Shown here piece by piece: positions 4,854 to 35,278 of a DNA stretch of 36,388 nucleotides; position 1 is the first letter of the stretch, and each line of letters opens with the position of its first letter. The notes beneath the pieces are model-generated. The model had not been told where the DNA came from and made no database searches. It saw only the letters and a program-made list of their open reading frames with translations. Made by a program: the position numbers and the translations under genes. The DNA is from a virus (Duplodnaviria > Heunggongvirae > Uroviricota > Caudoviricetes): the IMG/VR virus record IMGVR_UViG_2671180892_000013; one strand, given 5' to 3'.

Positions 4854-5335
4854 GACAGAAGCCCTCCCACCGTTTTACTGATATCGCTTAAGGCAGATGT
4901 TGCCGTTCCCTGCAGATTATTCAGCTGCGCACTGAGATCACCGAACATATCGGACAGGGATTCATCCACCCGTTTGAGCGACAGGGTGAACTCAATCCGG
5001 CGCGGCATACCGTCGCGGAAAAACTCCGTTTTAGTCTGATTCAGTCCCTCAATCACATACATGCCGTAAATCGTGCCGCTGCCTTCAATCAGGGGCCATG
5101 CTTTCCCCTGTTCTGCCATCTGCTCCAGTGCCAGCAACGACAGCCTGCCGCCTGTTATCTCCGGCATAAGAACACCAGAAAGCGTCAGCATGTCGTTGTC
5201 CGGTCCCAGAAACTGCGTGGACGGACGTCGGTTTACCCGGCTGTTTGCCACATGTCGCCAGCTGCGTTGATACTGCAGTTCCTGATACGGCACGGTGCGC
5301 AGCATAAACACGTACAATCCCAACACCATCATCAT
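4850..5335 (-). CDS. U: tail protein U
   Basis: 161 aa; 4-bp overlaps with T upstream and D downstream. Confidence 0.8.
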   Translation of the reverse strand: MMMVLGLYVFMLRTVPYQELQYQRSWRHVANSRVNRRPSTQFLGPDNDMLTLSGVLMPEITGGRLSLLALEQMAEQGKAWPLIEGSGTIYGMYVIEGLNQTKTEFFRDGMPRRIEFTLSLKRVDESLSDMFGDLSAQLNNLQGTATSALSDISKTVGGLLS

Positions 5336-11157: not shown

Positions 11158-12887
11158 CAGACCCCCTCCGCAATAAACCCAATATTCCATCCACCGTTAT
11201 CTCCGGTGATGCTCAGAGTAAAGCCAGTTGCAGTAATAGCTGTAATGGCGACACCCTCAACACTCCCACCGTGTGACGAACGGAAAACGGGGATCACGTA
11301 CCAGCACTGACGGGCAAATGGTGTCGGAAAATTCACCTGATACTCTTTATTCACCACACCAGTTGCCCCGGAAAAATAACTGTTAAAAAACTGCTTCAGC
11401 ACACCGCCAGTTATTCGGTGATAATTGCTGCCAAATGAAAATTCATCTTCACAAACACCCCGACGCCATAGTGTTGTATTGTCTTTAACCGTATCAGAGC
11501 CGCTGAAACGGTGATACATTTCCCCTGCTCCGGTGATGAAAATCTGCGCGCGTCTGTTCTTGTTATACGCAGCCTGAAAACCTGCACCATTCGATGGCAC
11601 TTCATCTGCATTACCTGAATATGCAAGAAACTGTGAAACCTCACCCATTTCGTAGTTATTATTGCTACCGATTCCGTATGCTCCCTGTTGCAGAGCACTT
11701 TCAGCCTTATCAACCGTCGGTTTAAGTCCCAGATTCTGAATAAACAAAGTCGGGTCAGGAATATCAGCACCATTGCGGTCCTTTGCCAGTCTCGCGCTGG
11801 CGTTGTCCATCGCAATTTTTACCGCTTTCAATGTCGCCGCAACATTTTCTGACACGCTGTTTACATCGTTCCCCAGTTGCACCATTCCTTTAACACTCAC
11901 TGATGCTTCTGGATAATGTGCACTGGTGAACACCTGATTCCACGGTGTTTCATCATCGGCAATTTTCGATAACATGCTGAATCGACAGTACATCTTGCCA
12001 TCATTAGCGACATAAATCTGTGCACGTCGATTGTCGTTGTAACAGGCCTGGAAACCAGCACCATGTGTTGGCACTTCTGGATAGCCGACAGCTGTACCAT
12101 AAGCAAAAAATTGCGATTTAGTTCCCATGGTTTTCAGATAAGCCAGGCCAATTCCATAATCTCCTGGCTGAATCGCTGATGCAGCTTTATCAACAGTCGT
12201 TTTCAATCCCAGATTCTGAACAAACAGTGCCGGATTGGGAATATCAGAACCATTGCGGTCTTTTGCCAGTCTGGCGCTGGCATTATCCATCGCTATTTTC
12301 ACTGCTTTTGGCGTTGCAGCGACTGTTTCATCATTGCTTTCCACACCGCTATACAGACGTACAAATCCCTTTTCTGTCAAAGACGCAGAAGGATGGCGGC
12401 GCGATTGCTCATGAATTTCTATTTGTTGATCTACATAATGACGGGTTGCCAGCACGACAGCAGGGTCGATTTTCAGGGTGATATTGTCCGTGCTGCTGGT
12501 AATCAGCACCATGCGCACGGTCTGGGTGCGCCCGCTGCCTTCAGCCAGTTGCGGCTTATAGCTTTCCGGGCAGTTGCCCACGGCAATCAATGCCCCGGAC
12601 TCATCAAACAGGCCCACTTCACGTATCCACCAACCGCCCTCGTTTTCAGGGATCACCTGTTCAGCAATAATCTGGCTGCTGTTCTGCGGGTCGATGTACA
12701 GCATATTCAGCGCAGCCCGGCGTTTCTCATTTACTAATGCTGTCTGCTTTGCGTCCGGCGTTGGCAATGTTCCGCCGCCATCGCCTACCGCCATATGGGT
12801 AATTTTTAAAGGCACACCGAGCGCGGCGGCGCTGGCAAGTTTCGCCGCGCCAATATCCGTCAGCAGAGTATAAAATTTTGTGCTCAT
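11157..12887 (-). CDS. H: tail fibre protein H
   Basis: 576 aa; conserved P2 gpH-like N-terminus, divergent C-terminal part with an internal tandem duplication. Confidence 0.88.
   Translation of the reverse strand: MSTKFYTLLTDIGAAKLASAAALGVPLKITHMAVGDGGGTLPTPDAKQTALVNEKRRAALNMLYIDPQNSSQIIAEQVIPENEGGWWIREVGLFDESGALIAVGNCPESYKPQLAEGSGRTQTVRMVLITSSTDNITLKIDPAVVLATRHYVDQQIEIHEQSRRHPSASLTEKGFVRLYSGVESNDETVAATPKAVKIAMDNASARLAKDRNGSDIPNPALFVQNLGLKTTVDKAASAIQPGDYGIGLAYLKTMGTKSQFFAYGTAVGYPEVPTHGAGFQACYNDNRRAQIYVANDGKMYCRFSMLSKIADDETPWNQVFTSAHYPEASVSVKGMVQLGNDVNSVSENVAATLKAVKIAMDNASARLAKDRNGADIPDPTLFIQNLGLKPTVDKAESALQQGAYGIGSNNNYEMGEVSQFLAYSGNADEVPSNGAGFQAAYNKNRRAQIFITGAGEMYHRFSGSDTVKDNTTLWRRGVCEDEFSFGSNYHRITGGVLKQFFNSYFSGATGVVNKEYQVNFPTPFARQCWYVIPVFRSSHGGSVEGVAITAITATGFTLSITGDNGGWNIGFIAEGV
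11493..11849 (-). repeat. tail-fibre internal repeat, unit 2 (about aa 347-465)
   Basis: ENVAATLKAVKIAMDNASARLAKDRNGADIP... block. Confidence 0.8.
11973..12329 (-). repeat. tail-fibre internal repeat, unit 1 (about aa 187-305)
   Basis: ETVAATPKAVKIAMDNASARLAKDRNGSDIP... block; about 85% DNA identity to unit 2 at a 480-bp period. Confidence 0.8.
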
Positions 12888-19031: not shown

Positions 19032-19682
19032 TCAGCGGCTGTCATTGCGCAGTCTGCGCTCCAGCTGCTGTTTGTCTTTTTTCACGCCACAGCGGGGATC
19101 GAGCTGCAACGCATGGTTGAGATGGTTAAGGGCGGAAGCCGGATTGCTTTCACTCAGGACAGCGCCAATCGCTTTATGCAGACGCGCCCGTGACTGGTCC
19201 GGCATATCCAGACCGTCTGTCAGCTCCAGCGTCTGCAGCAACAGATCGGCATCAAAGCCGGTGGCGGCAAGCATTGCGCTCTGCGCCGCGTCTGCCATTT
19301 CCTCTGCCAGCACGGTCTGCACATTGCGGTTACCCAGTGGCATCACCCAGCCATGACGCAGGGCATGACATCCGATCTCCAGCGCCCCGGCATAATCTCC
19401 GGCATCAATGCGCCACAGCATCACGTACATCAGCACGTCATCCTGTTGAGTGCCTCCGGCAGCCAGGACGCCCTCTGCCCAGGCGGCGTACTTCGGCAGC
19501 AGCTCCACCTTGATTTCCGCTTTTTTGACCGTGGACTGAACACCCTTGAGACGGCGGCGGTCTTCTGCCAGTTGCAGCAGCATCAGGTCATAGCCCGACG
19601 CGTGGCGAACACTGCCGCCCTCGCGGGCGGCCTGTTCAGCCTGAACGCGCAGGCGATGCTGCCGTGCGGGACTCAGGCTCAT
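19032..19682 (-). CDS. M: terminase endonuclease (small) subunit M
   Basis: 216 aa downstream of the capsid gene. Confidence 0.8.
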   Translation of the reverse strand: MSLSPARQHRLRVQAEQAAREGGSVRHASGYDLMLLQLAEDRRRLKGVQSTVKKAEIKVELLPKYAAWAEGVLAAGGTQQDDVLMYVMLWRIDAGDYAGALEIGCHALRHGWVMPLGNRNVQTVLAEEMADAAQSAMLAATGFDADLLLQTLELTDGLDMPDQSRARLHKAIGAVLSESNPASALNHLNHALQLDPRCGVKKDKQQLERRLRNDSR

Positions 19683-21736: not shown

Positions 21737-23503
21737 ATGAACACCACACTGACACCCGCAGATCTCGATCCCCGTCGGCAGGCCATGCTGCTGTACTTTC
21801 AGGGATACCGCGTCGCCCGCATTGCTGAAATGCTGGGCGAGAAAGTTGCAACCGTTCACAGCTGGAAAAAACGCGACAAGTGGGGTGACTATGGGCCGCT
21901 GGATCAGATGCAGCTCACCACCGCCGCACGCTACTGCCAGCTCATTATGAAGGAGCACAAAGAAGGGAAAGATTTCAAAGAAATTGACCTGCTGGCACGC
22001 CAGTCTGAGCGCCACGCGCGGATCGGCAAGTTTAACAATGGCGGCAACGAAGCCGACTTAAACCCAAACGTTGCCAACCGCAACAAAGGCCCACGTCGTC
22101 AGCCGGAAAAGAATGTTTTCACCGATGAACAGATTGAGAAACTGGAAGAAATCTTCCATTCCTCTATGTTCAACTACCAGCGCCACTGGTGGGAAGCCGG
22201 AAAAACCAACCGCATCCGCAACCTGCTGAAGTCACGCCAGATCGGCGCGACCTTTTACTTTGCCCGTGAAGCCCTGATTGACGCCCTGCTGACCGGACGT
22301 AACCAGATTTTCCTTTCTGCCAGCAAGGCTCAGGCCCACGTCTTTAAACAGTACATCATCGACTTTGCCAAAGAAGTGGAGGTGGAGCTGAAAGGCGATC
22401 CGATGGTGCTTCCTAACGGGGCCACGCTTTACTTCCTCGGCACCAATGCCCGCACGGCCCAGAGTTACCACGGCAACCTGTATCTGGATGAATATTTCTG
22501 GATACCGAAATTCCAGGAGCTGCGCAAAGTGGCCTCCGGTATGGCTATTCACAAAAAATGGCGACAAACCTATTTTTCCACGCCATCCAGTCTGACACAC
22601 AGTGCTTATCCGTTCTGGTCCGGTGCGCTGTTCAACCGTGGGCGCAACAAAGCCGATAAGGTGGACATCGACCTGTCCCACAGCAATCTGGCCCCCGGCC
22701 TGCTGTGCGCAGACGGGCAATACCGCCAGATAGTCACCGTGGAAGATGCGGTGCGCGGCGGCTGTAACCTGTTCGACCTCGACCAGCTACGCATGGAGTA
22801 CAGCCCGGACGAATACCAGAACCTGCTGATGTGCGAGTTTGTGGACGATCTCGCGTCCGTGTTTCCGCTCAGCGAGCTGCAGGCGTGCATGGTGGACAGT
22901 TGGGAAGTCTGGACCGACTTTCATGCACTGGCGCTGCGCCCGTTTGGCTGGCGCGAAGTGTGGATCGGTTATGACCCGGCAAAAGGTACGCAAAACGGCG
23001 ACAGCGCTGGATGCGTGGTGATGGCACCGCCAGCCGTGCCGGGTGGTAAGTTCCGCATTCTTGAGCGTCACCAGTGGCGCGGGATGGACTTCCGCGCCCA
23101 AGCTGACGCCATCAAAAAACTTACCGAACAGTACAACGTGACTTATATCGGTATCGACTCAACCGGCGTTGGTCACGGGGTTTACGAGAACGTGAAAGCG
23201 TTCTTTCCTGCCGTCCGGGAGTTTGTCTACAACCCCAACGTTAAAAACGCCCTGGTACTCAAGGCCTACGACATTATCAGCCACCGCCGTCTGGAGTTTG
23301 ACGCCGGGCACACCGACATTGCGCAGTCATTCATGGCAATCCGTCGCGCAACCACCGCCAGTGGCAACCGCCCAACCTATGAAGCCAGCCGCAGCGAAGA
23401 AGCCAGCCACGCCGATCTGGCCTGGGCAACAATGCACGCACTGTTTAACGAACCACTGCAGGGCGAGTCCGCCAATACCAGTAATATTGTGGAGATTTTT
23501 TGA
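21737..23503 (+). CDS. P: terminase ATPase (large) subunit P
   Basis: 588 aa; 4-bp overlap with the portal gene. Confidence 0.9.
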   Translation: MNTTLTPADLDPRRQAMLLYFQGYRVARIAEMLGEKVATVHSWKKRDKWGDYGPLDQMQLTTAARYCQLIMKEHKEGKDFKEIDLLARQSERHARIGKFNNGGNEADLNPNVANRNKGPRRQPEKNVFTDEQIEKLEEIFHSSMFNYQRHWWEAGKTNRIRNLLKSRQIGATFYFAREALIDALLTGRNQIFLSASKAQAHVFKQYIIDFAKEVEVELKGDPMVLPNGATLYFLGTNARTAQSYHGNLYLDEYFWIPKFQELRKVASGMAIHKKWRQTYFSTPSSLTHSAYPFWSGALFNRGRNKADKVDIDLSHSNLAPGLLCADGQYRQIVTVEDAVRGGCNLFDLDQLRMEYSPDEYQNLLMCEFVDDLASVFPLSELQACMVDSWEVWTDFHALALRPFGWREVWIGYDPAKGTQNGDSAGCVVMAPPAVPGGKFRILERHQWRGMDFRAQADAIKKLTEQYNVTYIGIDSTGVGHGVYENVKAFFPAVREFVYNPNVKNALVLKAYDIISHRRLEFDAGHTDIAQSFMAIRRATTASGNRPTYEASRSEEASHADLAWATMHALFNEPLQGESANTSNIVEIF

Positions 23504-24528
23504 TGGGAAAGAGTAAGAAGAACCGCGCTGCGTCGACGAACCAGATCCAGCATAAAAGTCAAACTACAGCCGAAGCATTCAGCTTCGGTGATCCCGTTCC
23601 TGTTCTGGACCGCCGCGAACTACTGGACTATGTGGAATGCGTACAGACAGATCGCTGGTATGAGCCGCCAGTAAGCTTTGACGGACTGGCGCGCACCTTC
23701 CGCGCCGCCGTGCATCACAGTTCACCAATTGCGGTGAAATGCAACATTCTGACCAGTACCTACATCCCCCACCCGCTGCTCAGCCAGCAGGCTTTTTCAC
23801 GTTTTGTGCAGGACTATCTGGTATTTGGTAACGCCTACCTGGAGAAACGCACGAACCGCTTCGGTGAAGTTATCGCCCTTGAGCCTGCTCTGGCAAAATA
23901 CACCCGACGCGGGTTAGACCTGGATACCTACTGGTTTGTGCAATACGGTATGACAACCCAGCCGTATCAGTTCACGAAAGGCAGCATTTTTCATCTGATG
24001 GAACCGGACATTAACCAGGAGATCTACGGCCTGCCCGGCTATCTTTCTGCCATTCCGTCCGCCCTGCTCAATGAGTCCGCCACGCTGTTCCGACGCAAAT
24101 ATTACATCAACGGCAGCCATGCAGGCTTCATCATGTATATGACCGATGCCGCGCAGAATCAGGAGGATGTGAACAATCTCCGCAACGCGATGAAAAGTGC
24201 CAAAGGTCCTGGTAACTTCCGCAACCTGTTTATGTACTCGCCTAATGGCAAAAAAGACGGGCTTCAGATCATCCCGTTGTCAGAAGTCGCAGCGAAGGAT
24301 GAATTTCTGAACATCAAGAACGTGAGCCGGGACGATATGATGGCGGCGCATCGTGTACCGCCACAGATGATGGGGATTATGCCGAATAATGTTGGGGGAT
24401 TTGGGGATGTGGAGAAATCGGCTAAAGTATTTGTGCGAAATGAGTTATTGCCGTTGCAAAAACGATTAATAGAAATTAACTCGTGGGTAAATATGGAAAT
24501 TATAAAATATACCGCATACAAATTATAA
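23500..24528 (+). CDS. Q: portal protein Q
   Basis: 342 aa downstream of P; the last about 15 codons lie in AT-rich cargo-type DNA. Confidence 0.88.
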   Translation: MMGKSKKNRAASTNQIQHKSQTTAEAFSFGDPVPVLDRRELLDYVECVQTDRWYEPPVSFDGLARTFRAAVHHSSPIAVKCNILTSTYIPHPLLSQQAFSRFVQDYLVFGNAYLEKRTNRFGEVIALEPALAKYTRRGLDLDTYWFVQYGMTTQPYQFTKGSIFHLMEPDINQEIYGLPGYLSAIPSALLNESATLFRRKYYINGSHAGFIMYMTDAAQNQEDVNNLRNAMKSAKGPGNFRNLFMYSPNGKKDGLQIIPLSEVAAKDEFLNIKNVSRDDMMAAHRVPPQMMGIMPNNVGGFGDVEKSAKVFVRNELLPLQKRLIEINSWVNMEIIKYTAYKL

Positions 24529-24533
24529 CCTTC

Positions 24534-24561
24534 AAAAGGATTGGCATAACACCAATCCTTT
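24534..24561. terminator. bidirectional hairpin between convergent Q and the SIR2-like gene
   Basis: aaaggattgg cataaca ccaatccttt 10-bp stem; T-run on the minus-strand side. Confidence 0.45.
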
Positions 24562-24576
24562 CATCATATAGATACG

Positions 24577-25449
24577 CTACCAATTCATGCTTTCTTTTAA
24601 TTCAGTTCGCGCATTTTCAACAAGTTGTACCAACTCTTTAAGACTATCAGTTAACACTTGATGACTACCTTTATTTGTTCTATATGTTAACATATTTACA
24701 TTTAATGTTTTTTCAATAACAGGAACCATATCTCTATGAATACTTTTATCAGCCATAACCATATAATGTGGTTTAACAGCATTGTGCTTGAAAAAAGCAT
24801 CTTCCAGAAGAAGCCTTATATCGGGGTCATTAGCCCCACAACCTATAAATAGAAATGTATGCGTTAAACCCAAGGCATTAAGAATCTCGTAAAAATCTCT
24901 GTACTGTGATCTTGCCTTTGCATAATCACTTCTTGAAAAAATCAAGTTTGACGTATTATCAATTGTGCCGTGAATTTTCAGAATAACACGACCACTATCC
25001 TTTATTGCACTTGCAATATCACTATCAAAATAATTTTTGACACTTACCGTGCCTTCTGTTTCTTTACTAACATATGTTTCATATATTTTATCAAAATTAG
25101 GCGTTACAACAATCCTGCAATCTAATTTAAAAAGAAACTCATGTATATCTGCTTTAGCATAATGTGGATTCAAGAATGCATTTTTTGCAATTTCATCGAA
25201 CCTCCCTTTAGGAAGCTTTGCCTTAATTAATTCACAAGCAGTCAAATAATCTTCGTTTTTAATCAATCGTTTAATTTGTAGCGATGACCCAGAACTGAGT
25301 TCTGGTAAACATCCTTCAAGAAATTGTTTCCAACTTGGAGGCCGTGAATTACCTTTACCAACACTGTTCATTGAGACGCCTGCCCCCAGAAATAAAATAC
25401 ATTTCCGTCTCGCTAAATCGGAGACTAAGCTTTTATCCCAATTAATCAT
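24577..25449 (-). CDS. SIR2-like domain protein (predicted NAD-dependent effector), second gene of a two-gene cargo operon
   Basis: 290 aa; CILFLGAGVS glycine-rich motif near the N-terminus, TPNFD, IHGTID (HG), FLFIGCGANDPD; AT-rich; ATG overlaps the upstream ATPase stop (ATGA). Confidence 0.7.
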   Translation of the reverse strand: MINWDKSLVSDLARRKCILFLGAGVSMNSVGKGNSRPPSWKQFLEGCLPELSSGSSLQIKRLIKNEDYLTACELIKAKLPKGRFDEIAKNAFLNPHYAKADIHEFLFKLDCRIVVTPNFDKIYETYVSKETEGTVSVKNYFDSDIASAIKDSGRVILKIHGTIDNTSNLIFSRSDYAKARSQYRDFYEILNALGLTHTFLFIGCGANDPDIRLLLEDAFFKHNAVKPHYMVMADKSIHRDMVPVIEKTLNVNMLTYRTNKGSHQVLTDSLKELVQLVENARTELKESMNW

Positions 25450-26453
25450 GACTCACTCGCAGCAACATTATCAAGGATACGGGAACAAATACTTTCAAAA
25501 AGCTTCTTAGCATCGTTTACTTTTGAAAAGTGCGATCCTACTACCCCATCTTTATTTTTAAGATTAAAAATTGGAGCATTTGCTAATTGAGACAATGGAA
25601 TTAAGCTATTCATATTCTCAATTTGCCCTAAATCAAAATTCATATCTTGTTTTTTTGCGTAATTATTGATTATTTCTGCTTTCATTGCCTTAGGAATTTT
25701 AAGTGCAATTTTTTCATACGCATTAACTTTTACTTTCTCTCCCCTTACTGTTTTCCCTTTATATTGTTGCATCGCATACCCAAGAAACTTCAGTCTGCAC
25801 TGTAAAGATGAGCCATCGATGATAAAATCTTCACCTTCATTTTTAGTATAGTTTTTCAGGCCATCAGATACACCTTCCATCCAGGCCTTTAGCGAAAGGT
25901 TAATATTATTAAGAGCTAAAAGACTAAACATATCAACAGACATTGGAATAATGAAATAGTCACATGATATTATTATTGCTCTATTCAATGCACCTAATGA
26001 AGGGCCTACATCATATAAAATAAAATCATAGTCTTTATACATGGAGGACAGATGTGAAAAAACAAATGTTGTTTGTATACCTCGAGGTTTCCCTGCCACA
26101 GCGGGGTCCCAATCAGATGCTAAAAAATCCTCACTCAACGCTAACTTGGGATCCCCAGGAATCAAGTCAAAACCAAACCTATCAGTTTTTATTGGAACTA
26201 CACGAGTAGTTGCATATCCTTTTGCCCTCCGAACTGGGGTTAAGAAATTTTCAATTGTATTTCTCTTATCAGAACCATAAAGTTCATCAAGTTTTTTCTC
26301 TCCCAAACAATAAGATGTTGTGTTGCACTGAGGATCGGCGTCAATAACCAACACTTTTTTGTGCATCTCAAGACTAAGATAAGCACCAACATTACACAAC
26401 AATGTAGTTTTGCCAACGCCACCTTTATTATTGAAAAAAACTATACTGTTCAT
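25446..26453 (-). CDS. ParA/MinD-superfamily deviant Walker-A ATPase, first gene of the cargo operon
   Basis: 335 aa; NNKGGVGKTT at residues 8-17, VIDADPQ, ILYDVGPS; no ParB-like gene follows. Confidence 0.75.
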   Translation of the reverse strand: MNSIVFFNNKGGVGKTTLLCNVGAYLSLEMHKKVLVIDADPQCNTTSYCLGEKKLDELYGSDKRNTIENFLTPVRRAKGYATTRVVPIKTDRFGFDLIPGDPKLALSEDFLASDWDPAVAGKPRGIQTTFVFSHLSSMYKDYDFILYDVGPSLGALNRAIIISCDYFIIPMSVDMFSLLALNNINLSLKAWMEGVSDGLKNYTKNEGEDFIIDGSSLQCRLKFLGYAMQQYKGKTVRGEKVKVNAYEKIALKIPKAMKAEIINNYAKKQDMNFDLGQIENMNSLIPLSQLANAPIFNLKNKDGVVGSHFSKVNDAKKLFESICSRILDNVAASES

Positions 26454-26490
26454 CTATAACATTGCTCATTTTATCACTCAAATTTCCTGA

Positions 26491-26499
26491 GATTTATAC
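26491..26499 (-). promoter_or_regulatory. candidate extended -10 (TGTATAAAT) for the ATPase/SIR2 operon
   Basis: Minus-strand tgtataaat about 40 bp upstream of the ATPase ATG. Confidence 0.3.
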
Positions 26500-26599
26500 A
26501 TAAGATTAATCGCAATGTCCAATCAGCTTTAACATTAATTAACACCTCTTTTAAGATTAAAATTTTGTTAAGAAATGCACTCTAGCCCCATGGCGCGCG

Positions 26600-26618
26600 C
26601 TCGTATCCCCGCCACGCC
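26600..26618 (-). other. cos-like cohesive-end motif
   Basis: Minus strand reads GGCGTGGCGGGGATACGAG; first 13 nt match the P2/186 cohesive-end sequence as I recall it. Confidence 0.4.
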
Positions 26619-26997
26619 TGCCCGCTTTATGCAGTGGTTTTCATGCACATGCATGACATGAGCAAAAGCCCGCCAGTTCTGGCGAATCTGAGCAAAGACG
26701 ATCCTCAATCGATCATGCGATTTCATGCAGCATAGTCATGCACTGTCAAGGAAGTGAAAATCCGTATCTGAATGGCCACTTGAAAAACGGATCATACGGG
26801 TTTACAAAGATGAATGTTCGCTGTGAACGGGAAGCGGAAGTTAACTTTCAGATAACATAATCCATATGCACGAGAACCTCTAAAATAGAATGGGACACCT
26901 AAGCGGGGTACTTACAACTATTCTTTCCATATTCACAGTTAACACTCTGTTTGGCGTATTTTTATTCAAATAGCAAACACCAATAAAAGGAGTTTCC

Positions 26998-27333
26998 ATG
27001 AACAATATTCCCCCTATACCACAGTTAGGAATTTATGTCTCAAAAATCGATCCCACCCTACGTATCACTGTAACCGATGTTGATATTGTTGATGGTGAGG
27101 ATGATTCTCCTGATGATGAATTGTTTTATTTAGTCCACTGGATCGAGGGGGAAGATGAAAGTGATATGACAGCAATGGGATTTGAGCTAGACCCAGTAGA
27201 GTGGCAGGCTTTCGTTGAATCTGAGCAATTAGTGTTTGAGCGTGATCCGTACATGGATTCAATCCCCGAAAATTCAAACTTGGCAAAGATTCGGGATTTT
27301 CTCATGAAGACTAAACAGAATGATCATTCGTAA
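26998..27333 (+). CDS. hypothetical small acidic protein
   Basis: 111 aa rich in Asp/Glu (DIVDGEDDSPDDELF, EGEDESDM); strong aaaggag SD 7 nt before the ATG. Confidence 0.6.
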   Translation: MNNIPPIPQLGIYVSKIDPTLRITVTDVDIVDGEDDSPDDELFYLVHWIEGEDESDMTAMGFELDPVEWQAFVESEQLVFERDPYMDSIPENSNLAKIRDFLMKTKQNDHS

Positions 27334-27487
27334 GTGTAAGCATCCATCAGGAAAATGGTTTTGTAAGTGAATCATCAACTTTTAGAGAGTCTCAGACACT
27401 CCCACTTCTGCTTCTGACACAAAGCGGACGATCACTTATCAAAATAACCGCCCACCTTACGCCTTATTTCACTCATTGCCCAAACTA

Positions 27488-28110: not shown

Positions 28111-30525
28111 TTAATACAGGTTCCGCCACTTATCATCTTCCTTCAGACGTTGGTTCCGATAGAAGATACGCAGGCCTGCTCCTGACGGAATACTGCCGCC
28201 GCGAAGGAGCAAATCGACTTCTTTCTCGCTGCCATCAAATCCCCTGGACTTCAGTTCATAGACGAGCTGCTGTCGCTGATGGTCTGTAATTCGCTGTTTG
28301 TAGTCTTTACGCCGTTTCGGTTTCACCTGGCGTAACCTTGCAGCCAGTTCCCGGCGCTCTTTTTTGCTCATACTGTGCAGGTAATCGTGCAACTCCTTGT
28401 CATTCATACGGGTAATATCCGTTCTGGAGTCCCCATCAGCTGATTTGTCTTTCCCTTGTTGGTTCAAATTTTCAGCAAGGGGACAGTTATTGCCACGAGT
28501 CCAAGGGGCGCAAGCGCCCTGGTCGGCTGCCGCCTCCTGAACGTCAACGGCCTTACGAACCATTTTCCACTTCACTGCATGAGTGCAGATCTTGCCCTCT
28601 GCAATGGGTGACCAGATGCCATAAATACGAATGCCGTGATCGCCATAGGCGGTCGGCTCTTCGTTGATTTCATAAGCGGTTCTGATCAGGTGATATTTGC
28701 GGGGAACCAGTACGCCGCCCTGCTTCATGATGTAGGTGGCAAAACAACCAGCATCAGCAGCAGCCAGGATTGCATCAAGGCGCGGGTTATCCAGTACCGG
28801 CGCACCTGCTTTTTTGTCCCCCTGTTGCCTTGCCGCCTGACCAGCCAGCAATCGCAGTTCACGGTAAGCCTGACGCCCCGGAATGCCAAAGAAGCGGAAT
28901 TGCTGAACACGATGCAGAGACGCCCAGGCATTAACGTATTCAGCATTATCACGCAGGGATTTCCCCGTTTCCTTGCTGATCTCGCCAGCCAGACCACGCC
29001 CGTCAATGTTCTTACTGATGTATTTCGCGATGTAGCTTGTTGGCGTACCTTTGCGCGGGTTAATCAACTCAGACTTAAAGCGCGGCCCCGTGTTATTGCC
29101 CAGCTCCTCGCGGTCTTCACGGATAGCAAACTTACGCAACAATGCAGTAATGGCGCGGCGGTCTTTTTTGCGCATGAAACACAACAGGTGCCAGTGAACT
29201 GTGCCGTCGTGATGCGGCTCAGCCACCCGCACGCCATACCAGCGCAACCCGGCTTTGTGCATCGCCTTACGAAATGCAGCAAACATACCGACCAGATAAT
29301 CGCTGCTTTGTCTTACCGTCGCGTTTTTCCAGGTCGGGTTGGGTCTGCCGTTATTGCGCGTGGAATGGAAACGTGACGGACAGGTAATGGTGTAGAAAAC
29401 GGCGCAGTCACCGCGCATTTCCGCGATAAGCTCCAGACCTTTAACACAGGCCATCATCTCATTGCGGCGATGCGCCGGGTTGCTGCAGCTGGCGTTTACC
29501 ACATCTTCCATATCCAGCACGTCTCCGTCTTCGTTCACCAGTTCATGAGAACGGAAAAACTCCAGCGACTTACGGCGCTGCTCACGTTTATGCATCACAG
29601 CTTCATAGCTGACATAGGGAGATGCTTTTTTGCTGACCAGGCAGACAGCACGCAACTGCTCTTCCCGCCATTCGCAACGCATCTTCCACAATTTCCGATA
29701 CCACCAGTCGGCGCACAGCATACGCGCCAGCGAGCCCGGAATGAGTTCATAGGGCACTGGTTTACGGCGGTTTCTTTTCCGACGGAGTTGCTCAAACGCA
29801 GGCGGGATGACATCCAAACGTAGGGTTTCCGCTGCCACCTTTTCCCATGTCTTGCGGATTTCTTCTGGCTTAACATCATCGGTGGCGTACAAATCACCAC
29901 AAGCGGCATCAAGACACATGCTCATATGCGCAGCGACAAGGGTAGACAGGCGTTTCACCTGATCCTGACTCATTTCAGGCAGGATCAGCAGGCCGTCCAG
30001 CCCTTCATGGCTTGCCATAAAGCGAAAAGAAGTGGATAGCTGACTGTCGCGTACATGCTCCAGTCGTTCCAGACATGGCTTAATCGTCTCACGCAAATAG
30101 CGGGAATAAGCCTTTGGCCTGCCCAGGCTGCTGAAGTATTCAATACGTTGCATCAGCGGCTTGCTGATATGGGAAGGCTGGGCGTTGACGTCAGCCAGAA
30201 TGACCATGTCTGGATTAAAACGCTGCTGCTCATGCGCCAGCTTTGCCCGGCTAATGAGCTTATCCTGCTCCATTTCGCGCTGGACAGGATCACGGGATTC
30301 ATTAAAGAAATAACGCTCCCAGACCTGCTCACTCAGTGCCTCGCGGCGCAGTTGTTCCTGCTCGTTATCGGCAGCATACAGAGTGATCAGGTTTGAAAGT
30401 GCAGACTCCGGCGCAACTTCCGCCGGGTCCAGATAAGGGTTAATGGCCTTTTTCGGGCCGTTCCATGAAAATGATGCAGCGGCCTCGTTAAAGCCGCTAG
30501 AGTTGCTCATATCGTCATGACTCAT
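28111..30525 (-). CDS. A: replication initiation protein A (rolling-circle HUH endonuclease)
   Basis: 804 aa; HWH (HUH) motif and YIAKYISK tyrosine pair; large early gene downstream of dam. Confidence 0.85.
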
Positions 30526-31379
30526 ACACGCACCTCGTACACAGCAGAACTATCCACGCCACGCGAAGGATCAAATCCCACCCAGCAGCGCGCCCCGGAA
30601 ACAGCAATGATTTCTGTTGCAGATTTACTATCACCAGCTGCCACACCGATGCTGCGTTTTGCCTTGATGTAGTGGTGAGTAAAATTGCGATACAGCGAAC
30701 GGATCAGGGATGTGTCACTGTTAGAAACAATGACGGGATGTCCTTCTGATGACCGATGTTCAAGAACGGATGCCAGGTGATACTGGTCATCTTCAGTGAA
30801 GCCGTCAGTGTGATAACCGGAAAACGTACCGTCATAAGGCGGATCGCAATACACCACATCCCCCACCTGCAGCATCGCCAGCGTTTCATCAAAGCTGGCG
30901 CAGATAAACGTTGCTCGCTGGGCTTTCTCTGCAAATGCGCGAATTTCTATTTCAGGGAAATACGGATTTTTATAATTACCGTAGGGAATGTTGAAATGCC
31001 CGCTCTTGTTATAGCGACATAACCCACGGTAACCGTGACGATTGAGATACAGGAAATATACCGCTTTCATGAAATCAGTAATTTCAGTTGAGTAATTAAA
31101 CTCCTGCCTTATGTTGTAATAAGCCACCTCCCTGTTTGCGATCTCAAATAAAACTTTGGCGCGAGATATAAACGATTCACAATCAGCGGCAACCTTTTTA
31201 TAGAAGTTGATTAAATCAGGATTAATATCCGCAACCAGATAGCACGGATAATCCGTCTCCATCATCACAGCACAGGAACCCGCGAAAGGTTCAACCAGTC
31301 GCGGACCAGCAGGAAGATGTTTTTTCAGTTCGGACATTACGGCGGTTTTATTTCCCGCCCATTTCAGGATGGTGCTCAT
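30522..31379 (-). CDS. dam: DNA adenine methyltransferase (Dam-like, N6-adenine)
   Basis: ATG at 31377-31379 with ggagg SD gives about 285 aa starting [11 protein letters not shown]; FAGSCAV and DPPY motifs. Confidence 0.85.
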
Positions 31380-31603
31380 ACAGCACCTCCGTTGTAATGT
31401 TTGCCTTTCAGCTCTGCGATTTCCTGACAGGTAATGCAAAGCTGCACACCTGGAATGGCGCGGCGGCGTGCTGGCGGAATTGGCGCTTCACACTCAATGC
31501 AAAGCACGCGGGACACGCCCGGCGTTTTGGCACGGGCAGCACGGATATGGCGCTGGCGTTCTTCTTCAACGCGCTGCTGTACAAGATCCATTGCATCAGC
31601 CAT
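31376..31603 (-). CDS. TraR/DksA-family C4 zinc-finger protein
   Basis: 75 aa with CIECEAP ... CITC cysteine pairs. Confidence 0.65.
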   Translation of the reverse strand: MADAMDLVQQRVEEERQRHIRAARAKTPGVSRVLCIECEAPIPPARRRAIPGVQLCITCQEIAELKGKHYNGGAV

Positions 31604-33339: not shown

Positions 33340-33915
33340 ATGGATTTCAGCAGCGGTGGTAAGAAAGTCATTGAACGTCTAGTTGAGGCGTACGGGTTCT
33401 CTACGAGACAAGCTCTTTGCGATCATTTGGGAGTATCCAAGAGCACCATGGCTACACGTTACATGCGAGACATCTTCCCTGCAGATTGGGTTTTGCAATG
33501 TGCTATTGAAACTGGTTATCCACTAGAATGGCTGGCATTCGGTATAGGGGACAAAAAACCCTCAAATATAAATGCACAAATTTTGGTACCAAAGAAAAAA
33601 TTAATTTCAGGAACGTTAATTGAAGATGGAGCATATATTTTTGATAAAACATTCTTACCTGAAAAAATATGTAATCCGTTCATCATTCAAGATCTGGATA
33701 ACGAATACATATGTAGCTCTGAATATAATGACATAAGCGATGGATTGTGGCTAATAGGCATAGACGAAAAAATTTCGGTCCGAACCCTGACCCGCTTACC
33801 TAATAACAGGTTATATGTTGAAGGAGGAAATCGTGGCTTTGAGTGTTCCAGAGATGAAATACAGGTTATTGGAATTGTGTGGTGCTGCATACTAAGAAGA
33901 GCAGAAAAATTTTAG
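33340..33915 (+). CDS. cI: CI-like immunity repressor
   Basis: ATG at 33340 preceded by ggagga; 191 aa, N-terminal HTH-like region (ERLVEAYGFSTRQALCDHLGVSKSTMATRY); 186 CI is about the same length. Confidence 0.7.
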   Translation: MDFSSGGKKVIERLVEAYGFSTRQALCDHLGVSKSTMATRYMRDIFPADWVLQCAIETGYPLEWLAFGIGDKKPSNINAQILVPKKKLISGTLIEDGAYIFDKTFLPEKICNPFIIQDLDNEYICSSEYNDISDGLWLIGIDEKISVRTLTRLPNNRLYVEGGNRGFECSRDEIQVIGIVWCCILRRAEKF

Positions 33916-33946: not shown

Positions 33947-35278
33947 ATGCCTATTGAATATACGTTTGATTATCGTGATGAGTTCCTTCGTAAGCCTATT
34001 GCTGAAAAATTAATAGCTCTACTGAACTCTGATATTAACTTATCTCCGCTGGTTATAGATGGCGGATGGGGCACGGGAAAAACAGAGTTTTGCAAAAAAG
34101 TTGCAAATCTAATTGAAAACAATAATCAAAAACATAAAGTAGTTTACATTGATGCTTTCGCTGAAGATCATAATGATGCCCCCATTTTGACGTTAATGGC
34201 AGGTGTTGCTGCACTTTTGCCCGAAGACAAACGAAAAGAGTTGATAAGCAAAACACTACCAGCAATACGTTTTGGTTTGAAAACCATTTTCAAAGCTGGC
34301 ACTGGATGGGTGTTAAAACAAAATGCAGATGACATTGTTGATGGCTTCGAAGATGCTATCAAAGAAGCCACTTCGAGTGCAATCGACAGTACAATTGAAA
34401 CATTATTAGACGATCATATAGAAGCACAGAAAAACATCGAGACATTGAGAAATACAATTTCGCAACTTACAGAGAAATTTAAAATAACGATTATTATAGA
34501 CGAACTGGACAGATGTAAACCTACATTCGCTCTTTCAATCATAGAAAATATTAAACACATTTTTGAAATAAAAAACTTGAATTTTGTTTTGGTTGCAAAG
34601 ACTCAACAACTCAAAGCATCAATAAGCCATCTGTATGGTTTATCCATAAATGCAGAACAGTATTTAGACAAATTCATAAAATTTACATTTGTATTGCCCG
34701 ATACATTTAAACCAGACAACTATACACCTGCATACGCATCTGTCGCTTTATGGGAAATATTAAAAAATGATTCTCAAAGACTGCAAGAAGTAAACGAAGA
34801 ATGCGGGCATATTATAAAAACGATAATACAAAGAGCTAAGTTGTCTTTACGTGAAGTAGAAACATTATCGCGCCATTTTGAAATATATCAGGTGCTATCT
34901 CAATCTGGAATTGGTCCAGAAAAAATATTTGGTTATTCATTATACCGAACGTTAGGAGTGATGCTATATTCTCTAAATCGCCCTTTGGCATTAAGCTATC
35001 TAGATAATTCTGTGGATGCAGAAAGTACTATCAAAACATTAGGCTTTGAATATTTAAGTTATGATGAGGATATTTATAGTGTAGATAATACTGAATATGC
35101 TATTTATGGGATCGTACTAGACTATATTGATGCAACATCTCCATTCTTTATAAAGGATGATGAAACCAGAAAAAAATGGACTGAACATGCTACCTATAGT
35201 TTCTTTCAAAAGGGCTTAAATACTGTTCCTCCCCGAAAACTTGTTTCGTCCGCCATTGAAGTTTTAATGCTCAACTAA
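33947..35278 (+). CDS. KAP-family P-loop NTPase; cargo gene between cI and int
   Basis: 443 aa; Walker A GGWGTGKT, Walker B IIIDELDRC; strongly AT-rich codon usage. Confidence 0.7.
   Translation: MPIEYTFDYRDEFLRKPIAEKLIALLNSDINLSPLVIDGGWGTGKTEFCKKVANLIENNNQKHKVVYIDAFAEDHNDAPILTLMAGVAALLPEDKRKELISKTLPAIRFGLKTIFKAGTGWVLKQNADDIVDGFEDAIKEATSSAIDSTIETLLDDHIEAQKNIETLRNTISQLTEKFKITIIIDELDRCKPTFALSIIENIKHIFEIKNLNFVLVAKTQQLKASISHLYGLSINAEQYLDKFIKFTFVLPDTFKPDNYTPAYASVALWEILKNDSQRLQEVNEECGHIIKTIIQRAKLSLREVETLSRHFEIYQVLSQSGIGPEKIFGYSLYRTLGVMLYSLNRPLALSYLDNSVDAESTIKTLGFEYLSYDEDIYSVDNTEYAIYGIVLDYIDATSPFFIKDDETRKKWTEHATYSFFQKGLNTVPPRKLVSSAIEVLMLN

Follow-up and report, generated by a model that had tools for sequence, protein, structure and literature searches.

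We conclude that positions 26593-26743 of the window (the whole 36,388-nucleotide stretch of viral DNA that was analyzed) very probably constitute, judging from the sequence and its relatives, the cos site of a P2-family prophage that appears complete, and that this site would be cut by the phage's own terminase at a 19-nt sequence. The window is a piece of an E. coli chromosome that carries a P2-family prophage in reverse relative to the P2 map, and E. coli 2014C-3307 matches it over 24400-27400 with 100% identity. The predicted cut site (26600-26618, minus strand) lies between the portal gene Q and the replication gene A, an arrangement that P2, 186, Fels-2, and SEN8 share in both order and orientation; the gpQ-gpA interval is the position of cos in all P2-like phages (PMC9122126 and phage records).

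The genes needed to use such a site are in place. Homologues of gpM, gpP, gpQ, O, N, and L are intact, and the packaging and head genes (head completion L, capsid N, and scaffold O, with terminases M and P and portal Q) are all full length. The gpM-like small terminase (19032..19682, minus strand; Pfam Phage_term_smal, E = 9e-40) is the presumed reader of the cos block, the gpP-like large terminase, with its ATPase and nuclease (21737..23503, plus strand), matches Pfam Terminase_6N, Terminase_6C, and Terminase_5, and the gpQ-like portal protein (23500..24528, plus strand; Pfam Phage_portal) has its 3′ end facing cos, in the orientation of Q of P2 and W of 186. Beyond cos, the gene order is a 111-aa ORF, a DinI/Tum-like gene, gpA (28111-30525, minus strand), a Dam methylase of the D12 class of adenine methylases (30522-31439, minus strand), CII, CI, a KAP-family P-loop NTPase (33947-35278, plus strand), and an integrase gene that runs past the end of the window. 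The KAP NTPase gene, which sits between the CI repressor and the integrase, is probably a further cargo slot of the prophage. Overall, the prophage appears complete, with a cos of the Fels-2/SEN8 type and regulation of the 186 type.

The predicted 5′ cohesive end is GGCGTGGCGGGGATACGAG (26600..26618, minus strand), a cosN-type sequence lying between the two predicted nicks. The original prediction started from a cos-like motif matched to the first 13 nt of the 186/P2 cohesive end, and for 186 this match is exact: comparison with the annotated ends of 186 and PSP3 (GGCGTGGCGGGGAAAGCAT) yields 15/19 identities, including 13/13 at the start, and comparison with those of P2 and P4 (GGCGAGGCGGGGAAAGCAC) yields 14/19, with 12/13 at the start. 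The P2-family hallmark GGCG(A/T)GGCGGGGA... is present, making this a GC-rich homologue of the 19-nt cohesive ends, and the 13-mer GGCGTGGCGGGGA occurs only once in the window (minus strand, 26606-26618). The complete 19-mer is identical in Fels-2, SopEPhi, Yersinia phage MLG42, E. coli phage 813R9, and SEN8, and the genome announcement of Salmonella phage SEN8 (PMC5427200) gives it as the cos site of that phage. The SEN8 record carries a “putative cos site” feature at 1-19, and its last base aligns with window position 26619, which is the base preceding the 19-mer. Related cos variants also appear in print, as GGCGTGGCGGGGAGACGAG (Smp131) and GGCGAGGCGGGGGAACGAG (SEN4 and SEN5).

We found in the literature no experimental end mapping for the cos type ending in ...ATACGAG, the SEN8 feature itself being designated “putative.” A scan of IMG/VR for the exact 19-mer recovered at least 120 stretches, and among the matches listed none starts or ends at the 19-mer, so the contigs give no evidence on physical ends. 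As a separate observation, the cohesive end hardly varies over its first 12-13 nt, and its last six bases differ by lineage (AAGCAC, AAGCAT, GAGCAT, TAGCAT, TACGAG, and GACGAG among satellites and published phage cos sites), a pattern that suggests distinct end-compatibility types among helpers and satellites.

The similarity to known cos sites extends well past the 19-mer. As had been proposed along with the original prediction, the region was compared with the cos regions of P2 and 186: we joined the right and left record ends of P2, 186, PSP3, and P4 and aligned them with MAFFT to the minus strand of the window. The region aligned base for base with P2 and 186, and also with PSP3 and P4, across the 19-mer and both of its flanks. 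In the core from -29 to +25, 42-45 of the 55 positions are identical to P2, 186, PSP3, and P4, ungapped, and 53 of 55 are identical to SEN8; the region of the distal boxes described below matches SEN8 at 31/31 positions. A conserved core of ~55 bp around the cohesive end, common to P2 and P4, is attributed to Ziermann and Calendar (1990) in PMC5694545, PMC3931495, and PMC9594776.

The two flanks of the 19-mer resemble each other. On the portal side, the 7-bp flank CGCGCGC (26593..26599, minus strand) is exact in 93/117 distinct blocks among the matches listed, P2, 186, PSP3, and P4 have (T/C)GCGCGC at the same position, and conservation drops to random directly past it. On the replication side, the nick flank is CACTGCATAAAGCGGGCA (26619..26636, minus strand), within which AAAGCGGGCA is exact in 101/117 blocks among the matches listed; the flank reads CATAAAGCGGGCA in the window, CATAAAGTGGGCA in 186, and GTGAAGCGGGCG in P2. 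The TGCAT in this flank is lineage-specific, being present in 11/117 of the blocks listed, most of which have TACAT or TACAC. Read directly from the sequence, GCGGGCA located 5′ of the predicted top-strand nick is mirrored by GCGCGCG 5′ of the predicted bottom-strand nick, and such look-alike flanks fit with an enzyme that nicks symmetrically. The symmetry of the flanks would also account for conservation stopping exactly 7 bp past the 19-mer.

On the other side, conservation reaches much further. With columns anchored on the 19-mer and left ungapped, we observed a sharp conserved block of 151 bp, from -125 to +25 (window 26593-26743; 116-119 loci among the matches listed), outside of which identity on both sides is ~33%, the random level, and the flanks are unrelated. 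BLAST against phage records gave nearly the same limits (26593-26744). In the mature genome, this long conserved arm would form part of the right end. Thus, the interval first singled out as a cos-like motif with a repeat cluster, 26600-26760, covers almost exactly one conserved unit. Relative to the clade consensus, the window copy has a weakened hairpin arm and two other differing positions, and given these differences, it may work with reduced efficiency. We also noted several E. coli genomes in which the portal-side island and the cos block are present at 98.5-99% identity and in which similarity is lost exactly at 26743/26744, or 45 bp beyond (26788); the loss of similarity at the distal edge indicates that this edge acts as a recombination boundary.

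Within the block, the most prominent elements are short CATGC-containing boxes. On the plus strand, CATGC starts at 26642, 26648, 26714, 26724, and 26737, with a minus-strand copy at 26651-26655, and TCATGC starts at 26641, 26713, 26723, and 26736; thus, the at least five copies noted originally are real, with coordinates no more than 1-3 nt out. Of 300 mononucleotide shuffles, 3 attained six CATGC within 110 bp, and 0 attained four same-strand TCATGC within 110 bp. Across the whole window, CATGC is strongly under-represented (58 copies, compared to 145 +/- 12 expected from dinucleotide-preserving shuffles), and because of this scarcity the local cluster stands out more. Conservation in relatives is, in any case, much stronger evidence than local shuffle statistics, and it divides the five copies on the original list into four that are conserved YGCATG boxes and one, at 26648, that is specific to a lineage. 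The latter arises by a lineage-specific G-to-T change; CATGCAG is found in 76/117 blocks among the matches listed, and CATGCA(G/C/T) in at least 100/117.

The proximal boxes, TCATGCA-TG-TGCATGAAAACC, occupy 26636..26656 on the minus strand and include the conserved plus-strand copy at 26642 together with the lineage-specific one at 26648. Here TGCATGA is exact in 110/117 and AAAACC in 103/117 blocks among the matches listed, and the proximal TGCATGAAAACC aligns with TGCATTAAAACC of P2, 186, PSP3, and P4, which is the start of the 55-nt stretch compared above. The three distal boxes (26713..26742, minus strand) are TGCATGA at 26736-26742, TGCATGA at 26723-26729, and CGCATGA at 26713-26719, with starts 13 and 10 bp apart, and of the 117 distinct blocks among the matches listed, at least 103, 112, and 109, respectively, retain YGCATG at these places. 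The boxes hold their position while the spacers diverge, and the 13/10 spacing recurs in 186, PSP3, P4, and five P4-like satellites; in P2 it is 12/10. The equivalent arm of phiCTX and Smp131 contains CGCAG(G) repeats, and the phiCTX record annotates “R4, R5, R6 repeats” across cos. Our literature search found no footprint or binding study of gpM on YGCATG boxes, and on a described role for TGCAT boxes it returned only the statement of a 55-bp core.

Two IMG/VR contigs, L046 (cos at 12055) and L015 (cos at 4902), have the exact 19-mer, the hairpin, and the nick flanks, and are without the three distal boxes; the proximal box is kept in L015 (GTGCATGAAAATC) and degraded in L046. By eye, their upstream genes look ParB-like or replication-like, L046 is without gpQ or gpA, and L015 has only a fragment of Q. 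These two contigs may represent another type of element that borrows a Fels-2-type cos.

Satellites provide an independent view of which parts of the block belong to the packaging signal. P4 has no structural genes in common with P2; nevertheless, the nick flanks, the proximal box, and the three distal TGCAT boxes (13/10) are all present in P4. When genomes were scanned with P4 Psu, six loci emerged. One is nearly a copy of P4 (99% Psu identity), and the other five, in Enterobacter, Tatumella, Citrobacter, Kluyvera, and Photorhabdus, are P4-like elements with 60-65% Psu identity to P4 that likewise have no structural genes in common with P2-like phages. In all six the cos box layout lies 167-179 bp after psu. 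Four of the five P4-like satellites (L142-L146) carry GGCGTGGCGGGGAGAGCAT and the fifth GGCGTGGCGGGGATAGCAT, end types other than that of the window. Among the at least 120 IMG/VR loci we found no P4-like satellites, none having psu, sid, or alpha adjoining cos. Since the packaging signal is all that a satellite must share with its helper, the shared boxes are the best evidence here that the boxes are part of this signal.

The original proposal that this may be the terminase recognition region is therefore supported by both homology and conservation. By homology with P2, 186, and P4, the gpM + gpP terminase would recognize the ~150-bp block on replicated phage DNA. The minus strand would be nicked between 26619 and 26618, directly following GCGGGCA, and the plus strand, 19 nt away, between 26599 and 26600, directly following GCGCGCG. 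These nicks would leave the 5′-protruding ends GGCGTGGCGGGGATACGAG, and the DNA would then be packaged through the Q portal. We infer the cleavage bonds, the identity of the box-binding protein, and the direction of packaging from homology. As to the boxes, we lean toward YGCATG being the sequence-specific contacts of the small terminase, in which case they would form a cosB-like array.

Between the proximal and distal boxes lies a terminator-like hairpin with a T-run, pointing to the cut site (26663..26686, minus strand; palindrome at 26669-26686, followed by TTTTGC). It contains, as GCCAGTTCTGGC at 26672, the gccag-tt-ctggc palindrome seen in the original analysis, and a scan of the window for terminator patterns described it as 7 pairs plus CTTTTGCT. 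In most relatives there is a 9-bp GC-rich stem (GCCCGCCAG/CTGGCGGGC) followed by TTTTGC (-18.4 kcal/mol), and where one stem base is altered, a G-U pair is frequently left on the minus strand. In the window, the 5′ arm has ATT, not GCC, and the folding energy is -12 kcal/mol (z -0.86). As a stable structure in the window copy, the palindrome is no better than shuffles, and it is significant only in relatives. The palindrome is thus present as claimed, in the form of a weakened copy of a conserved terminator-like hairpin, which in most relatives looks, from its sequence, like an intrinsic terminator facing the cut site; it would most likely stop transcription of early or cargo genes running toward that site. 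A different inverted repeat occupies the hairpin position in 186, PSP3, P4, and the satellites. The loop of the hairpin occurs among relatives (L014-L133) in two mirror forms, CCAGAACTGG and CCAGTTCTGG, each in many loci, which is what flipping of the palindrome center would produce.

The GAGCAAA direct repeat described alongside the palindrome does occur, at 26660 and 26690, but it is not conserved: both 7-mers are exact in 5/119 loci among the matches listed, and we rejected the repeat as a conserved element. A TTTGC core is found at both places in 49/119 loci among the matches listed.

We considered that the block might be cos as described, with the boxes serving another function: their partner could be the large subunit or a bending protein of the host, or they could act late, as a signal for termination or for holding the end, like lambda cosQ. 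The boxes do lie on the right-end side of the nicks, the phiCTX record has IHF sites together with R repeats near cos, and a spacing of 13/10 bp, about one helical turn, would suit a bending protein. On the other hand, the sequence of the boxes tracks phage lineage, enteric phages having TGCATG where phiCTX and Smp131 have CGCAG(G), and a lineage-dependent sequence fits better with a co-evolving phage protein than with a conserved host factor. We also take the YGCATG boxes to be unlike the IHF consensus. We regard this alternative as rather unlikely, although likelier than the two that follow.

Two other explanations would deprive the boxes, or the entire site, of a role in packaging. First, the repeats and the palindrome might be transcription signals (operators, promoter parts, a terminator) for the neighboring cargo genes, with the packaging signal limited to the 19-mer and its immediate flanks. 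In favor of this, the hairpin resembles an intrinsic terminator in most relatives, the 55-bp P2/P4 cos core, as described in PMC5694545 and PMC3931495, excludes the distal boxes, and the start of the P2 old-tin mRNA (33424-33426) falls ~25 bp past the block on its distal side, such that the promoter of this mRNA would overlap the distal boxes. However, the neighboring genes on both sides differ completely among loci and the boxes are fixed, the same boxes follow psu in P4-like satellites, and a cosmid with longer cos-region DNA raised P2 transduction >1000-fold (PMC9594776), so that we hold a purely transcriptional role to be very improbable. Finally, the weakened hairpin of the window might be taken as a sign that a defective prophage retains here only a defunct cos, or a sequence that resembles cos by chance. 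Against this stand the near identity of the core (53/55) and the distal positions (31/31) to SEN8, a phage isolated as virions, the full-length packaging and head genes, the presence of CI, CII, Tum/DinI, gpA, and an integrase, and the uniqueness of the 13-mer in the window; we see almost no chance that the site is of this kind. The reading of 26593-26743 as a cos site, with boxes that would contact the small terminase, accommodates these observations best.

The Fels-2-type block has one further conserved feature, two GATC (Dam) sites 11 bp apart (26700-26703 and 26711-26714, minus strand), which are absent from the blocks of P2, 186, PSP3, and P4. Both are present in 107/119 loci among the matches listed, compared to 0.5 GATC expected per 151 bp. 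We also observed a Dam homologue in 51/55 loci with enough upstream DNA among the matches listed, these loci not being phylogenetically independent. At the pac site of phage P1, methylation is linked to packaging, and by analogy the conserved GATC pair together with the phage-encoded Dam may link methylation to packaging here. A more elaborate combination, in which the YGCATG array is a gpM recognition code shared with satellites and the GATC pair with Dam makes recognition of cos methylation-dependent, seems unlikely to us. If it were true, the last six bases of the cohesive end would define end types (TACGAG, AAGCAT, AAGCAC, GAGCAT, and TAGCAT in this reading), which helpers and satellites must match.

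Comparison with known systems leaves the element in familiar company: among P2-family cos sites it is a standard one, of the Fels-2/SEN8 type known from publications, and it is located in a known hotspot. It shares with the cos of SEN8, Fels-2, and SopEPhi the hairpin, the GATC pair, the CGCGCGC flank, and the presence of cargo between cos and the portal gene, and it differs from the SEN8/Fels-2 type by point differences only (changes in the 5′ arm of the hairpin, a TGCAT added at -15, and CATGCAT for CATGCAG); the cargo genes on both sides of the window cos are, in contrast, different from those of SEN8, Fels-2, and SopEPhi. P2, 186, PSP3, and P4 have the site at the same place and in the same orientation relative to portal Q, with nick flanks AAGCGGGC(A/G) and (T/C)GCGCGC, the same TGCAT(T/G)AAAACC proximal box, and three distal TGCAT boxes, the proximal and distal boxes being separated by an inverted repeat. 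In the P2/186 group, however, the last six bases of the cohesive end are AAGCAT or AAGCAC, compared to TACGAG in the window, and thus the ends of this prophage would not anneal perfectly with P2 or 186 ends. Moreover, in P2, 186, and PSP3 the portal gene is reached within ~190 bp of cos, with a further conserved stretch on the portal side that is missing in the window.

P2 reportedly packages from monomeric circles, in work attributed to Pruss and Calendar and to Bowden and Modrich. A minimal cos of ~125 bp also belongs to the general background, and we did not use it as evidence. The cos site of lambda has no sequence relation to the window block, its overhang is 12 nt compared to 19 nt, and the terminase families differ. 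The likeness is one of analogy only, in that lambda cos (cosQ-cosN-cosB) likewise combines a nicking site, partly symmetric flanks, and an array of protein-binding repeats within ~150-200 bp (PMC4669245).

The placement of cos also bears on the cargo genes beside it. The original analysis had put an ATPase/SIR2 island on the portal side of cos, and this is where it lies: the SIR2-domain protein (24577-25449, minus strand; Pfam SIR2_2, RefSeq “SIR2 family protein”) and the ParA/MinD-like ATPase (25446-26453, minus strand; Pfam AAA_31/CbiA, RefSeq “ParA family protein”) occupy 24577-26453, between Q and cos. In PADLOC, the pair gave only weak ThsA/LmuA/Dsr-like SIR2 matches and no defined system. 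The pair is rare and was found in none of the at least 120 IMG/VR loci with the cos type of the window; a 3-kb ParA/SIR2 query was covered in full in four E. coli genomes, with four more reaching the 80% cut-off (the search tool itself counts 4 at that threshold), and, beyond the four full matches, at least eight of the listed genomes have the gene pair, some of them with coverage just under 80%. Cargo on the portal side is usual in the Fels-2-type clade and no oddity: the gap between the block and the Q C-terminus exceeds 600 bp in 72/86 loci among the matches listed, and Fels-2, SopEPhi, SEN8, 813R9, and 500465-1 also have cargo there.

On the replication side, the DinI-to-block gap exceeds 600 bp in 42/79 loci, and both slots are filled in 28/54 loci, among the matches listed. 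P2 has its old gene on this side of cos, tin being named in the old-tin mRNA note of the record and in PMC9122126. In the window, the 111-aa ORF (26998..27333, plus strand), which had no match in a Pfam search and is assigned to DUF8087 in some RefSeq records, is probably a second cargo gene. In L117, L069, L074, and L085, this gene recurs with an identical spacing to cos. We noted that in L117 and L069, which include Q, the Q-cos distance is unlike that of the window, such that the portal-side cargo differs; the sharing of the 111-aa gene by loci with differing portal-side cargo suggests that the two slots are exchanged independently. The gpA-gpQ interval has been published as a cos-proximal defense hotspot (Rousset et al. 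2022, PMC9122126; PMC13586616), and Dodd and Egan reportedly described in 1996 that retrons Ec67 and Ec86 had taken the place of DNA lying between cos and a terminator in a 186-like prophage (from the title, as given in PMC5694545). The published papers treat gpA-gpQ as one hotspot, whereas here the cos block splits it into two slots.

The finding would fix the genome ends of this prophage and places the ParA-like/SIR2 pair in the portal-side slot of the known cos-proximal defense hotspot. It is of use for annotation and for the design of cos-based transducing plasmids, and is otherwise nothing new in kind; the conserved box array and the GATC pair of the Fels-2-type block, as candidate elements for terminase binding, are a point of some value.
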